The translations under genes and the position numbers were made by a program. A stretch of DNA of 64,000 nt from Escherichia coli (GTDB taxonomy: Bacteria; Pseudomonadota; Gammaproteobacteria; Enterobacterales; Enterobacteriaceae), in assembly GCF_017348835.2 (NCBI RefSeq), contig NZ_CP071375.1. One strand, 5' to 3'. Shown one piece after another: positions 1 to 23,252 of the stretch. The notes below the pieces were generated by a model. It was not told where the DNA came from and made no database searches. It worked only from the letters and a program-made list of their open reading frames with translations. Position 1 is the stretch's first letter. Each line of letters begins with the position of its first letter.

Positions 1-779
1 CACCGAATTATCGCCAGTCTTGGCGGTTAGCGGGAGTGTGGCGACGGGCGATTAACCTGATGACGGAAAGCTGCGAACTGTTAACGCTGCATCGTCAGGG
101 TAGTGGTTTCGGCCCCGGAGGATGGGTGCTTCGCCGCGCGCAATTCGATGCGTTATGCGGTGGATTATGCGGCAATGAACGACCACAGGTTGTGGCTCAA
201 GGGATTCGCCTCGGGCGTTTCACGGTTAAACAGCCACAGCGTTATTGTTTGCTGCGTATTACGCCGCCTGCACATCCTCAACCGCTTGCCGCTGCATGGA
301 TGCAACGCGCGGAGGAAACCGGGCTTTTCGGGCCACTGGCGTTGGCGGCAAGCGATCCGCTGCCTGCTGAATTACGCCAGTTTCGTCACTGTTTTCAGGC
401 CGCGCTCAATGGCGTTAAGACCGACTGGCGGCACTGGCTGGGTAAAGGCCCCGGATTAACGCCAAGTCATGATGACACTCTGAGCGGAATGCTGCTGGCG
501 GCCTGGTATTATGGCGCTTTAGATGCGCGCTCTGGTCGCCCGTTTTTTGCCTGTTCCGACAATCTTCAACTCGTTACCACAGCGGTGAGCGTCAGTTATT
601 TACGTTATGCCGCGCAAGGATATTTCGCCTCGCCACTCCTGCACTTTGTTCATGCTCTGAGTTGCCCGAAACGTACCGCTGTTGCGATTGATTCGCTGCT
701 GGCGCTGGGGCATACGTCAGGGGCAGATACGCTGCTGGGGTTCTGGCTTGGCCAACAATTATTACAAGGAAAACCATGA
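1..779 (+). CDS. ylbF: DUF2877-family protein (YlbF-like), 5' end cut by window edge
   Basis: Frame is open from nt 3 with no in-frame stop until TGA 777-779; stop overlaps ATG of next gene (ATGA); position directly upstream of ybcF-purK fits E. coli gene order as recalled. Confidence 0.5.
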
Positions 780-1669
780 AAACACTGGTTGTGGCTCTTG
801 GGGGCAACGCCTTACTCCAGCGCGGTGAGGCGCTGACGGCAGAAAATCAATATCGCAATATCGCCAGTGCTGTACCCGCGCTGGCACGCCTGGCCCGTTC
901 TTATCGGTTGGCGATTGTTCACGGCAACGGGCCGCAGGTGGGGCTGCTGGCATTGCAGAATCTGGCGTGGAAAGAGGTAGAACCGTATCCGCTGGATGTG
1001 CTGGTGGCAGAAAGTCAGGGGATGATTGGCTATATGCTGGCGCAGAGTTTGAGCGCACAGCCGCAGATGCCGCCCGTGACGACGGTGCTGACGCGCATTG
1101 AGGTTTCGCCTGATGATCCGGCGTTTTTGCAGCCAGAGAAATTTATTGGTCCGGTTTATCAGCCAGAAGAACACGAGGCACTGGAAGCGGCTTACGGCTG
1201 GCAGATGAAACGTGATGGTAAATATTTACGCCGGGTGGTGGCGTCTCCGCAACCGCGTAAAATTCTCGACAGCGAAGCCATCGAGTTGTTGCTCAAAGAG
1301 GGGCATGTGGTGATTTGCAGTGGCGGCGGCGGTGTGCCTGTGACGGATGACGGAGCAGGGAGTGAAGCAGTGATTGATAAAGATCTCGCCGCTGCGTTGC
1401 TCGCCGAGCAGATTAATGCAGATGGACTGGTGATCATCACCGATGCTGATGCGGTATATGAAAACTGGGGAACGCCGCAGCAACGTGCCATTCGCCATGC
1501 CACACCGGATGAGTTAGCGCCATTTGCCAAAGCCGATGGTTCGATGGGGCCGAAGGTAACGGCGGTGAGTGGTTATGTCAGAAGCCGTGGTAAACCCGCG
1601 TGGATTGGGGCGTTATCGCGAATTGAAGAGACGCTGGCGGGCGAAGCGGGGACCTGTATTTCGCTGTAG
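776..1669 (+). CDS. ybcF: carbamate kinase-like protein
   Basis: 297-aa ORF; carbamate kinase family motifs ([26 protein letters not shown]); position upstream of purK. Confidence 0.85.
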
Positions 1670-1699
1670 TGATGAGAGCATCCGGCAATCGGTGCACCA

Positions 1700-1795
1700 T
1701 GCCTGATGCGACGCTTGACGCGTCTTATCAGGCCTACAATGGGTACCGGAGCGGTGTAGGCCGGATAAGGCGTTCACGCCGCATCCGGCAATCAA
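1700..1795. repeat. REP/BIME-like palindromic units in ybcF-purK intergenic region
   Basis: Two GC-rich imperfect palindromes (gcctgatgcgacgcttgacgcgtcttatcaggcctaca and gtaggccggataaggcgttcacgccgcatccggca) typical of enterobacterial REP elements. Confidence 0.6.
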
Positions 1796-1807
1796 ATGAG
1801 CACCAGG

Positions 1808-2875
1808 TTAACTGAACTTACTCTGCGCCCACATCACGCCGCTGGCATATTCTGGCGGCAGCAGCGGGATTAAGGCTTCCAGCGTCGCGGTCAGACGCGA
1901 TGTGTCGCTGTCGGTTAAATTCAGATGCCCCACTTTACGCCCCGGACGGACTTCTTTGTCGTACCAGTGCAGATGCACCAGCGGCAATTTCAGCCAGTCA
2001 TAATTCACATCGCTACCAATCAGGTTGATCATCACCGACGGACTATTCACTATCGGTTGCGGTAACGGCAGATCGGTAATCGCCCGCAGATGCAGCTCAA
2101 ACTGGCTGATGCTGGCACCGTTTTGTGTCCAGTGACCGCTGTTATGCACACGCGGTGCCAGTTCGTTGATCAACAGACCTTGCGGGGTGACAAAACACTC
2201 CATTGCCATCACGCCTACATAGCCCAGCTCCTGCATAATCGCCGAAAGCATCTCTTCGGCTTGCGCTTGCTGCTGCGCATTGGCCTGCGGGAAAGCGACG
2301 CTGGTGCGCAAAATACCGTCCTGATGCAGGTTATGCGTCAGCGGATAAAACACGGTGCTGCCATCAAAGCCGCGCGCGCCAACCAGCGACACTTCACCAG
2401 AGAAGTTTATGCCCTGCTCGACAATACATTCGCCGTAGCATTCAGCCGGTAACTGCTCGGTTTCATCGGCGCGTAAACGCCATTGACCGCGTCCGTCATA
2501 GCCACCAGTGCGACGCTTAACAATCGCCAGCTCACCTAAACGATCAAACACCGCAGGCCACTCGTTGCGTCCGGCAAGTAACTGCCACGGTGCAGTCGGC
2601 AGGTGGAGCTTATCGAAAAGCTGCTTCTGAGTCAGACGGTCAGCAATAATCGGGAACACATCGCGGTTCACAAAGGCCGGATGGCGCGCCAGCTCGCGGG
2701 TTAATGCGGTTTCCGGCCAGCGTTCTATCTCAGCGGTAATCACGCTTTGTTGAAAAGGCACCGCCGCCGGTTCAGCGTCCAGCCCGACTGGCCAGACAGC
2801 AATGCCTAACGGTTCGCCTGCCTGACGCAGCATACGGCCTAACTGCCCGTTACCGAGGACGCAAACCTGTTTCAT
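1808..2875 (-). CDS. purK: N5-carboxyaminoimidazole ribonucleotide synthase
   Basis: 355-aa ORF, ATP-grasp fold sequence matching PurK; overlaps purE stop. Confidence 0.95.
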
Positions 2876-3381
2876 GCCGCACCTCGCGGGTCCGGGTTTT
2901 CCAGCACTTCGTCGGTCTGGGCTTTGCGCCAGTCATTCAGACGCTGGTGCAGCTCTTTATCATGAGTCGCAAGAATTTGTGCTGCCAGTAACGCCGCGTT
3001 TGCCGCGCCAGCTTTACCAATCGCCAGCGTACCCACCGGAATGCCGCGCGGCATTTGTACGATGGAGTAGAGGCTATCGATACCGCTCAGTGCGGCGCTC
3101 TGTACTGGCACGCCCAGCACTGGCACCAGCGTTTTGGCGGCAATCATACCCGGCAGGTGCGCTGCGCCGCCTGCGCCCGCAATAATCACCTGATAACCGT
3201 TCTCTTCGGCGCTTTCGGCGAAGCTGAACAGTTTATCGGGGGTGCGGTGAGCAGAAACCACTTCAACGTGGTGCGGGACATTCAGGATTTCGAAGATTTC
3301 GGCGGCGAACTGCATGGTAGCCCAGTCGCTTTTGGACCCCATCACGATGGCGACACGCGCCGGATTATTGCGGGAAGACAT
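2872..3381 (-). CDS. purE: N5-CAIR mutase
   Basis: 169-aa product starting [22 protein letters not shown]-track ORF is longer but the internal ATG at 3379-3381 gives the canonical length. Confidence 0.95.
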
Positions 3382-3498
3382 GCGTCTTAAAACTCCTGTG
3401 GTGCACAACTCTCGGCTTTAGAGGGCACAGAGAATAGCACGGAAAGAGAGCAAGGAAAACGGTTGCGTGGCTGTGAAATCAGCAAAGTTGTGGGTTTT

Positions 3499-4221
3499 TT
3501 AAAACGGAAAATGAATCAGCTCAACGTCATCCGCCGTGACTTTCACCATCGAACCTTCCGTATGCCAGGCACCCAGTACCACGCGTAAAGCAGGTTGCTG
3601 GTTGGCGATAAGTTCATGTACCGCCGGGCGATGGGTATGCCCGTGAATCAGCCATTGCACCTGATGTTTTTCCATCGCACTGACCACCGCGTTTTGGTTA
3701 ACGTCCATGATCGCCAGCGATTTACTGCTGTTGGCTTCTTTACTGTTCGCGCGCATTCGCGCGGCAATGCGTTTGCGCACAAACAACGGCAGAGCGAGGA
3801 ATAGCGTTTGCAGCCAGGGTTTGTGGACTTTGGCGCGAAAAGCCTGATAACCCGCGTCATCGGTGCACAGCGTGTCGCCATGCATAATCAACACCCGACG
3901 ACCATAAAGTTCGAGCACCTTTTCTTCCGGCAATAACGTCATGCCGCTTTCACGGGCAAAGCGTTTGCCGAGCAGAAAATCACGGTTGCCATGAATGAAA
4001 TAACAGGGAACGCCGGAATCGGACACCGCTTTGATCGCTGCCGCCATCTGGCGATGGAGTGGGTTGGGATCGTCGTCGCCAATCCACGCTTCAAACAGAT
4101 CGCCAAGAATATACAGCGCGTCGGCATTGCGGGCTTCCCCCGCTAAAAAACGCAGAAAACCGGCGGTGATCGCCGGTTCTTCCACGCAGAGATGAAGATC
4201 TGCAATAAAGAGTGTCGCCAC
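3499..4221 (-). CDS. lpxH: UDP-2,3-diacylglucosamine pyrophosphatase
   Basis: 240-aa calcineurin-like phosphoesterase (DLHL, GDLFE, GNRD, HGHTH motifs). Confidence 0.9.
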
Positions 4222-21161: not shown

Positions 21162-21422
21162 ATGCAATCACCATTACGAAATGTGCGTAAGGCGCATGGT
21201 TTCACTTTGCAGCATGTTGCTGCGGGTGTTCAAGTCAATCCAGCGACGTTGAGTCGTATTGAGAGGCTGGAGCAGATTCCATCTATCGAGCTTGCAGAAC
21301 GTTTAGCCAATTTTTTTAAGGGTGAAGTCAGCGAAATGCAGATTCTTTATCCGGCACGTTTTCAATCTAGCCAAAACCAGAATGGGTTTAAACCACAGGA
21401 ACAGGAGGTGAACCGTGGGTAA
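21162..21422 (+). CDS. cro: Cro-like HTH regulator
   Basis: 86-aa HTH_XRE protein (FTLQHVAAGVQVNPATLSRIER) divergent from cI. Confidence 0.75.
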   Translation: MQSPLRNVRKAHGFTLQHVAAGVQVNPATLSRIERLEQIPSIELAERLANFFKGEVSEMQILYPARFQSSQNQNGFKPQEQEVNRG

Positions 21423-21966
21423 GCATCACTGGAAAGTAGAAAAACAGCCTGAGTGTTACGTGAAAGCTGTCAGAAAAACTATCGCAGCGTTGCCGGGGGG
21501 GTACGCTGAAGCTGCTGACTGGCTGGATGTAACAGAGAACGCATTATTTAACCGCCTTCGTGCCGATGGCGATCAGATTTTCCCGCTGGGATGGGCAATG
21601 ATTTTGCAACGTGCTGGTGGAACTCACTTCATTGCTGACGCTGTGGCGCAGTCTGCAAATGGCGTCTTTGTGTCTCTTCCTGATGTCGAGGATGTGGACA
21701 ACGCCGATATCAACCAACGCCTGCTGGAAGTCATTGAACAGATCGGCAGTTATTCAAAACAGATTCGTTCAGCAATTGAAGACGGTGTAGTGGAACCGCA
21801 TGAGAAGACAGCAATTAACGATGAGCTGTACCTCTCAATTTCGAAGCTGCAGGAGCATGCAGCACTGGTCTACAAAATCTTTTGCGTTTCAGAAAGTAGT
21901 GACGCCCGCGAGTGTGCAGCTCCGGGCGCCGTGGCGTGTCGTGACTGTGGAGAAACTAACGCATGA
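21415..21966 (+). CDS. phage regulatory protein, possibly CII (CP76)-like
   Basis: 183-aa ORF directly after cro with overlapping start; family assignment from position and recalled similarity only. Confidence 0.4.
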
Positions 21967-22301
21967 ACAGTTTAACAACACACTACCGTCGCTCGCAACT
22001 GATTGCGCTTCCTGTACCGGGTGGAAAAGCGAAGGTGGAGTATTGCTATGCAGTAAATGTACCAGGTGACAGGGAAATTGTAACCCACAGCTTTGCAGAG
22101 TGGGCTGTGGGTGATTTCAACCGGCAGAAGGAGACAGTCCTTTGCGACAAGTTAACCGCTGGTTCAAAGATCACTACGGAGTGCCCGTCAGAGTCATTCG
22201 TTGGGAGCCGGAAACACAACGGGTTATCTACCTCCGTGAAGGCTATGAGCATGAGTGCTTCAGCCCGCTCGAACAGTTTCGTCGTAAATTCAGGGAAATA
22301 G
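21963..22301 (+). CDS. hypothetical ORF in a region with three overlapping protein-like frames
   Basis: ATGA coupling to upstream gene; C-terminal half looks non-coding while frame +2 carries protein-like sequence with no ATG; see findings. Confidence 0.3.
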
Positions 22302-22310
22302 AGGTCGGTC

Positions 22311-23252
22311 ATGAGCACTAAATTAACCGGCTATGTATGGGATGGTTGCGCTGCGTCAGGCATGAAATTATCCAGCGTGGCAATTATGGCCCGCCTGGCT
22401 GATTTCAGTAATGACGAAGGTGTGTGCTGGCCATCAATTGAAACCATTGCCCGTCAGATTGGCGCGGGGATGAGTACCGTCAGAACGGCTATCGCACGGC
22501 TGGAAGCAGAAGGCTGGTTAACGCGTAAGGCGCGTCGCCAGGGTAACCGCAATGCGTCGAATGTTTATCAGCTTAACGTTGCGAAGCTTCAGGCAGCGGC
22601 ATTTTCTCAACTGTCAGATTCTGACCCGTCAAAATCTGACGCATCAAAATCTGACCCGTCAAAATTTGATGCGTCGAAATCTGGCAAAAAAGCGGGTTTT
22701 CACCCGTCAGAATCTGGCGGGGATCCGTCAGTAAAATCAAAACATGATCCGTCAGATAAAAAAACTTCTCGTCCGGACGCTTCGCAACCGGACACGCAGA
22801 AGGCTGAACAGGAGTTTTTAACTCGCCATCCTGATGCGGTTGTATTCAGCCCTAAAAAGCGCCAGTGGGGAACGCAGGATGATTTGACCTGCGCACAGTG
22901 GCTCTGGAAAAAAATCATCGCCCTGTACGAGCAGGCCGCCGAATGTGACGGCGAGGTGGTTCGTCCCAAAGAACCGAACTGGACAGCCTGGGCAAACGAA
23001 ATTCGCCTGATGTGTGTGCAGGATGGTCGTACTCACAAACAAATCTGCGAGATGTACAGCCGCGTCAGCCGCGATCCGTTCTGGTGCCGTAACGTGCTCA
23101 GCCCGTCGAAGCTGCGGGAAAAATGGGATGAGCTTTCCCTGCGCTTATCGCCGTCCGTCAGCACGTACACCGAAAAACGCGAAGACCCGTACTTCAAAGC
23201 CAGTTACGACAACGTGGACTACAGCCAGATCCCGGCAGGATTCAGGGGGTGA
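22311..23252 (+). CDS. phage replication initiator (O-like, N-terminal HTH)
   Basis: 313-aa; N-terminal winged-helix/HTH_36-like region (MSTVRTAIARLEAEGWL), internal iteron-encoded linker; follows cro/cII. Confidence 0.7.
   Translation: MSTKLTGYVWDGCAASGMKLSSVAIMARLADFSNDEGVCWPSIETIARQIGAGMSTVRTAIARLEAEGWLTRKARRQGNRNASNVYQLNVAKLQAAAFSQLSDSDPSKSDASKSDPSKFDASKSGKKAGFHPSESGGDPSVKSKHDPSDKKTSRPDASQPDTQKAEQEFLTRHPDAVVFSPKKRQWGTQDDLTCAQWLWKKIIALYEQAAECDGEVVRPKEPNWTAWANEIRLMCVQDGRTHKQICEMYSRVSRDPFWCRNVLSPSKLREKWDELSLRLSPSVSTYTEKREDPYFKASYDNVDYSQIPAGFRG
22606..22760. repeat. iteron-like direct repeats inside the replication gene (candidate ori)
   Basis: Four tandem 15-nt units tgacccgtcaaaatc / tgacgcatcaaaatc / tgacccgtcaaaatt / tgatgcgtcgaaatc (22622-22681), then degenerate ccgtcag units and an A-rich tract. 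Confidence 0.5.

Follow-up and report, generated by a model that had tools for sequence, protein, structure and literature searches.

Small genes nested on the same strand within another gene, in a different frame and with their own ribosome-binding site and start codon, are known from bacteriophages, as in lambda Rz/Rz1 and the phiX174-type arrangements, and phage early operons are known for translational coupling through overlapping stop and start codons (ATGA and similar). The locus described here lies in a 64,000-nucleotide stretch of Escherichia coli DNA (contig NZ_CP071375.1 of assembly GCF_017348835.2), referred to below as the window, and has features of both. Its likeness to Rz/Rz1 and the phiX174-type genes is that a nested arrangement, in this case a gene of the Pfam family DUF4222 inside ymfM, appears to have been kept across diverged phages. 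It departs from Rz/Rz1 in two respects: there both products are constrained and have a joint function, whereas here sequence constraint is found in DUF4222 only and the tail of ymfM appears constrained just to stay open; and DUF4222 lies in the +2 (-1) frame relative to ymfM, whereas Rz1 is in the +1 frame.

The closest described locus is that of the e14 prophage of E. coli K-12. Positions 21940-22330 of the window match e14 ymfM (b1148) with 99% nucleotide identity over 391 nt, and b1148, annotated as 'cell division inhibitor YmfM', is the same 112-aa ORF flanked, as in the window, by ymfL and the replication gene. In the sections of the preprint considered here, ymfM is identified as the SfiC cell-division inhibitor of e14 and treated as a single gene, with the whole ORF in pBAD24 and a ΔymfM deletion, and no frame-specific ymfM mutants are described (Ansari et al., bioRxiv 10.1101/2020.11.19.390815). 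Earlier library clones are described as carrying either ymfL(142-185) together with ymfM and ymfN(1-92), or the whole ymfN-ymfK region.

The interval forms the early-right operon of a lambdoid prophage of the e14/SfII type, in which a cI-like gene on the minus strand is followed by a cro-like gene, ymfL (cII-like), ymfM, DUF4222 and an O-like replication gene (Table 1). E. coli strains 05-3629 and PE164 match positions 21400-22350 at 100% identity and Shigella phage SfII matches at 98%; of 5,426 complete E. coli genomes, 1,867 contain at least 80% of this segment.

Table 1. Features of the early-right operon segment, in window coordinates.
Feature	Position	Strand	Basis and remarks
cro-like HTH gene	21162..21422	+	ORF list; PGAP: HTH protein; annotated cro in SfII
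ymfL, cII-like regulator	21415..21966	+	Window frame 1; 183 aa; GTG start
89-aa frame-2 chance ORF (CxxC-x11-CxxC)	21800..22069	+	ORF list; codon-position pattern, homologues
ymfM N-terminal domain (codons 1-62)	21963..22148	+	Window frame 0; identity to b1148
ymfM C-terminal tail (codons 63-112 + TAG)	22149..22301	+	Overprinted on DUF4222
AAGGAG ribosome-binding site of DUF4222 gene	22128..22133	+	Sequence
DUF4222 gene	22142..22321	+	59 aa; TTG start; window frame 2; Pfam
O-like replication initiator	22311..23252	+	PHROG 391, E = 1.7e-135

The genes follow one another end to start. The last 8 nt of the cro-like gene overlap the GTG start of ymfL, the ymfL stop and the ymfM ATG share the sequence ATGA, and the ymfM TAG (22299-22301) touches the GAGG ribosome-binding site of the replication gene (22301-22304). 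The DUF4222 gene, 160 nt of which lie inside ymfM, ends with a TAA at 22319-22321, and so shares 11 nt with the replication gene, whose ATG is at 22311. In these junctions, and in the same end-to-start chaining among its relatives, the locus resembles the coupled early operons of phages; it differs from the known cases in that coupling is here read from the geometry and the replication gene has a GAGG of its own. On the evidence set out below, the interval is probably an intact, translationally chained early operon containing an overprinted gene pair, and reflects neither indels nor recoding. Further downstream, at 22620-22683, the O-like replication gene contains 4.3 copies of a 15-nt unit (TCTGACCCGTCAAAA); the units encode DPSKSDASKS peptide repeats and look like origin iterons situated within the initiator gene, as in lambda.

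An earlier note on this DNA, made from the sequence alone, had drawn attention to three mutually overlapping protein-like frames at 21415-21966, 21800-22069 and 21963-22301, all of which are present in the ORF list at these positions. The first is ymfL, which matches the NCBIfam YmfL family NF041471 with 168.1 bits (cut-off 90) and belongs to PHROG 101, CII-like. Counts of variable sites at codon positions 1, 2 and 3 within the e14-like clade give 15/12/73 for its 5' part, a coding pattern, and 8/6/14 for its tail at 21800-21962, where constraint is weak, and together these results indicate that ymfL in frame 1 is a real gene. The NF041471 model spans residues 16-156 and the Cys-containing C-terminal tail (21886-21966) lies beyond it; K-12 ymfL differs from that of the window in this tail.

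The second frame, an 89-aa ORF in frame 2, was said in the earlier note to end in a convincing CxxC-x12-CxxC zinc ribbon. The spacing in the sequence is CxxC-x11-CxxC, and the motif is retained in many close relatives of the window, as would be expected of a real zinc-ribbon peptide or of a frameshift product that extends YmfL. Read in its own frame, the ORF has variable sites of 6/14/8 at 21800-21962 and 14/1/1 at 21963-22069, both non-coding patterns in which the variation falls at its positions 1 and 2 because these are the wobble positions of ymfL and ymfM. Moreover, the Cys motif is interrupted by a stop in at least 31 near-identical loci, diverged lineages have other residues in place of the cysteines, no ATG and many stops, and the ORF has no family match in NCBIfam or PHROGs. 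The likelihood of a zinc-ribbon product or YmfL extension is thus close to nil, and we rejected this ORF as a gene because of its codon-position pattern, its stops and its unconserved cysteines.

Frame 2 is open from 22115, following a TGA at 22112-22114, and the AAGGAG at 22128-22133 stands 8 nt upstream of a TTG at 22142, which the earlier note had named as a possible start. The frame-2 sequence that it had called clean and protein-like corresponds at 22139-22300 to Pfam DUF4222 (PF13973; E = 2.9e-19, model positions 1-52 of 53), and PGAP assigns the DUF4222 name to the same 22142-22321 ORF. To place this gene among its relatives we collected 259 viral loci with diverged protein queries and scored the geometry over 261 sequences. 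The DUF4222 match is in frame +2 of the ymfM ATG in 257 of the 261 listed loci, usually at an offset of 179. The codon at the DUF4222 start in the listed loci is TTG in 160, ATG in 65, GTG in 29 and ACG in one, so that 254 of 255 have TTG, ATG or GTG at this point, and a GGAG or GGAGG is visible upstream in nearly all lineages. The conservation of a start codon and a GGAG at the N-terminus of DUF4222 argues that it is an independently initiated gene, and we take the TTG of the window to be the local counterpart of the ATG and GTG codons of its relatives.

The pattern of variation points in the same direction. When the overlap (22142-22301) is read as DUF4222, variable sites number 12/4/21 at the three codon positions, a coding pattern. 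Substitution classes in the overlap were counted over six clades as changes seen out of changes possible. Those silent in DUF4222 and non-synonymous in ymfM, the commonest class, were seen at 77/297 for transitions and 38/231 for transversions; those non-silent in DUF4222 and synonymous in ymfM at 20/301 and 12/310; and those non-silent in both frames at 16/290 and 32/1097. Non-silent DUF4222 changes are therefore seen at 0.03-0.07 of opportunities, which indicates that the DUF4222 protein is under purifying selection, with a ratio of about 0.2. The AlphaFold model of the product is confident (pLDDT 84.6), and the predicted fold is a small SH3/Tudor-like barrel. Most of the 91 representative DUF4222 clusters are stand-alone proteins of 57-80 aa, and some stand-alone genes are without any overlapping ORF. 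A sequence search of solved structures returned nothing for DUF4222 or YmfM, and a search of the literature found no study of DUF4222 function; the family is named a single time in each of five papers, and in no title or abstract.

The gene of the window shares with typical PF13973 members of enterobacterial lambdoid prophages a full-length match, a length of 59 aa and a position just upstream of the replication initiator. Unlike in other DUF4222 lineages, where it is a separate gene following a gene of 58-61 aa, in the window and other e14-type loci it is embedded out of frame in ymfM, with a TTG start. The DUF4222 C-terminus varies in length, and its stop lies 4-89 nt inside the next gene, so in many lineages DUF4222 overlaps the replication gene too, again out of frame. 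Nonsense alleles of DUF4222 are found in some prophage copies (L139, L135 and others), 8 of 146 possible ones having been seen. We also noted that AAGGA at 22128-22132 can pair with UCCUU at 22138-22142 to give a 6-bp hairpin in which the ribosome-binding site of DUF4222 would be masked; compared with shuffled sequences, folding of the RNA from 22090 to 22180 did not show this hairpin to be significant (z = -0.54), and it was set aside on that account and because its sequence is not conserved in other lineages.

Annotations disagree about this segment. In genomes annotated by PGAP, ymfL is followed by a 59-aa DUF4222 protein with a TTG start and by the replication gene, with no ymfM (for example L001 3243-3422). 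The K-12 RefSeq record (NC_000913.3, 1203822-1204180; L003 5323-5681) and the GenBank record of SfII have the 112-aa ORF and no DUF4222. Neither style of annotation shows both genes, although PHROGs contains families for the 112-aa protein, for a 63-aa N-terminal version and for the 59-aa DUF4222 protein. The suggestion in the earlier note that overlapping genes are missed by ORF finders therefore holds for ymfM and DUF4222, of which each pipeline calls one, and fails for the supposed zinc ribbon. The K-12 and SfII records, which list the 112-aa ORF only, and the assignment of the published phenotype to ymfM are what would be expected if YmfM were the sole real gene and the DUF4222 frame an artefact of annotation. 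This we consider extremely improbable in view of the strength of the Pfam match, the many DUF4222 clusters that are stand-alone and in some cases free of any overlap, the variation that places selection on the DUF4222 frame, and the confidence of the predicted fold. We conclude that DUF4222 at 22142-22321 is a real gene.

The earlier note had also suggested that indels have broken one or two genes here or that genes are recoded. In a reading of this kind, an ancestral gene has been split by a frameshift, or a programmed -1 frameshift yields a fusion of about 118 aa between the ymfM N-domain and DUF4222. Such fusions do occur as rare database proteins (P0030, P0052, P0059 and P0065, with 14 members), and in P0214 another N-terminal module is in frame with DUF4222. 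The rare fusions are joined at four different points, however, and are best seen as indel variants of the common arrangement; the out-of-frame geometry is the rule among the listed loci, including viral lineages with only 38% DUF4222 identity, and it recurs in the 1,867 E. coli genomes that carry the segment; and the start codon and ribosome-binding site are conserved exactly at the DUF4222 N-terminus. Furthermore, distant relatives have two separate genes, and the stretch 22115-22145 is not conserved between lineages. No slippery heptamer of the form X XXY YYZ is present in 22115-22145, and we found no signal for the recoding that had been suggested; a programmed -1 frameshift was rejected on the grounds that this stretch is without such a heptamer and varies between lineages. 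The conserved geometry also argues that the locus is neither a pseudogene nor the product of a sequencing frameshift, and a broken or frameshifted gene is accordingly very unlikely, and the arrangement is better read as an overprinted pair of intact genes. Proteins P0030, P0052, P0059 and P0065 themselves may be real alleles or assembly errors.

The outer gene, ymfM, occupies 21963-22301 in window frame 0 and encodes 112 aa, and its two parts behave quite differently. From 21963 to 22141 variable sites number 4/1/23, a coding pattern, and synonymous changes in this N-terminal region are seen at about 0.08 of opportunities versus 0.02-0.03 for non-synonymous changes. Residues 1-53 of YmfM align with free-standing proteins of 58-61 aa with an hhalign probability of 98% (E = 2e-13), and AlphaFold predicts three strands and two helices, with pLDDT in 10-residue blocks of 58-73 over residues 11-70. 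YmfM-type proteins were found down to about 45% identity; their first ~60 residues are conserved, and the rest is Ser/Thr-rich and poorly conserved, with total lengths always of 112-117 aa. NCBIfam and Pfam have no YmfM model, and Pfam finds nothing in the 112-aa ORF. These comparisons indicate that the N-terminal ~60 residues form a real, conserved domain. Within the overlap the ymfM reading gives 4/21/12, with position 2 the most variable. The earlier note had seen frame 0 decay into Ser-rich sequence after about 22150, and purifying selection on ymfM indeed ends at the DUF4222 start, with residues 68-112 at pLDDT below 40. The amino-acid sequence of the ymfM tail is, by this measure, unconstrained.

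The tail frame is consistently open. A ymfM-type ORF of 111-117 aa is present in 255 of the 261 listed loci, and the frame is open in all of at least eight diverged lineages, with DUF4222 identity down to 38%, as well as in L276, a locus found through its DUF4222 protein and not through YmfM. The best 80 loci from the YmfM alignment are near-identical, and divergence was taken from the diverged-protein queries; L181 and L182, whose ymfM ORFs measure 80 and 235 aa, derive from deletion or recombination and are uninformative. In nearly all lineages the ymfM stop precedes the next ATG by 9 nt or follows it by 11 nt.

Substitutions that would close the frame are missing. Among third-position changes silent in DUF4222, none of the 45 that create a stop in the ymfM frame was seen, compared with 14 of 50 comparable changes that put a stop into the third frame and 100 of 470 other silent changes (Fisher p = 5e-5 for all loci, the alleles being not fully independent because the clades share ancestry). 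Two of the locus sets in this comparison consist of the best 80 tblastn matches to a full-length query, in which truncated alleles may be under-sampled; for the loci with no matches discarded the counts are 0/36 versus 87/438 (p = 0.001). When mutation type is matched (NTY to NTR), the test gives p = 0.003 for all loci and p = 0.09 for the unbiased subset. The split-type control clades yielded only one and five identical loci (P0223 and P0230), too few for use, and the third frame and the N-terminal region therefore served as internal controls; off-frame stop classes are not depleted in the N-terminal region (3/48 and 7/37 versus 44/569). No stop in the ymfM frame occurs in data in which DUF4222 nonsense alleles reach 8/146.

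Openness by chance was simulated over the ~53 shared codons, conditioned on the DUF4222 protein of each lineage and on local codon usage, giving values of 0.01-0.18 with a median of 0.07. Calibrated on ordinary genes of the window, the simulation gives 829 off-frame stops where 763 are present, and of the 53-codon stretches of these genes 12.7% have this frame open. Six DUF4222 genes in split-type or unrelated contexts, none of them read across by an upstream ORF, served as controls; the frame is open in three (L268, L269 and L277), versus about 0.4 expected, which suggests that composition or shared history may contribute to openness. The openness of these three could also reflect an unrecognised use of the frame.

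These data bear on a simpler explanation, that the ymfM tail is meaningless read-through, chance or composition being enough to leave the alternate frame of DUF4222 open without selection. The tail evolves as if neutral and is predicted to be disordered, half of the control genes are open without any ORF using the frame, and so is a fair share of ordinary stretches. Set against this are the complete lack of stop-creating silent changes, versus 28% in the unused third frame, the openness of all of at least nine lineages whose synonymous divergence is saturated, the position of the stop at the start of the next gene, and the accumulation of nonsense alleles in DUF4222 and not in the ymfM frame. 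We therefore regard pure read-through as unlikely, and selection for an open ymfM tail frame as likely but not proven.

The form of the locus in more distant prophages suggests how the overlap may have arisen. There the cII-like gene is followed by a gene of 58-61 aa, then by DUF4222 and the replication gene; the small gene stops at the start of DUF4222, either as ATGA or within a few nucleotides, and the split-form DUF4222 stops in turn at the start of the replication gene. An Entomohabitans prophage (L263) lacks DUF4222, and its N-domain is a 78-aa gene sharing 11 nt with the replication gene. At e14-type loci a C opens the second codon of DUF4222, with the result that no TGA is formed at the junction and the N-domain ORF continues. 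The simplest history is that in the e14-type lineages the N-domain gene lost its stop and was extended C-terminally across DUF4222, an instance of overprinting. A second subfamily of N-terminal modules, with the pattern MN[SI]VNRFRPA.QF.C.PLVG...NYQP..MV.AF..MN.KG, is also found upstream of DUF4222. It is in frame with DUF4222 in P0214 (123 aa), a possible natural fusion; in P0076 (L266 2001-2339) and at ~1330-1680 of L276 its reading frame crosses DUF4222 in the manner of ymfM.

If the tail is maintained while its sequence is free, selection would presumably act on the transit of ribosomes through it or on its length. Transit could deliver ribosomes to the ribosome-binding site of the replication gene, keep the mRNA covered by ribosomes, or throttle the weak TTG start of DUF4222; length would count if YmfM needs a disordered tail. 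Preservation of transit or coupling falls, in our judgement, just short of an even chance, and the replication gene has a GAGG ribosome-binding site of its own, such that coupling is not obviously needed. A functional disordered tail ranks below this and is a more tentative suggestion. A bolder proposal, which we think somewhat unlikely, is that the ymfM tail is kept open for the act of translation and not for its product and, separately, that the SOS-inducible SfiC filamentation comes wholly or in part from DUF4222, or from the N-domain alone.

The dual coding bears directly on the published phenotype. The pBAD24-ymfM clone includes codons 1-53 of the 59 in DUF4222, together with the TTG start and the ribosome-binding site before it, and hence nearly the whole Pfam domain. 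Since this clone, the ΔymfM deletion and the library clones affect both genes together, assignment of the phenotype to one product is ambiguous, and among the papers listed in our literature search none connects ymfM with an overlapping gene. The inhibitory product behind the filamentation credited to YmfM is thus ambiguous between ymfM and the nested DUF4222.

The literature on K-12 gives ymfM the phenotype of the 35-year-old SfiC division inhibitor, and this named gene shares its DNA with a conserved protein of 59 residues that is predicted to fold well; the e14 prophage of K-12 holds a conserved gene that is missing from the reference annotation. As an instance of overprinting on one strand within a phage early operon, the locus adds a new and well-supported case to a phenomenon already known. 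It is also a clean natural case, related prophages having preserved the extended form alongside the split, ancestral-type one, and the presence of a single sequence-constrained reading makes the locus useful for asking what selection preserves in dual-coding DNA.
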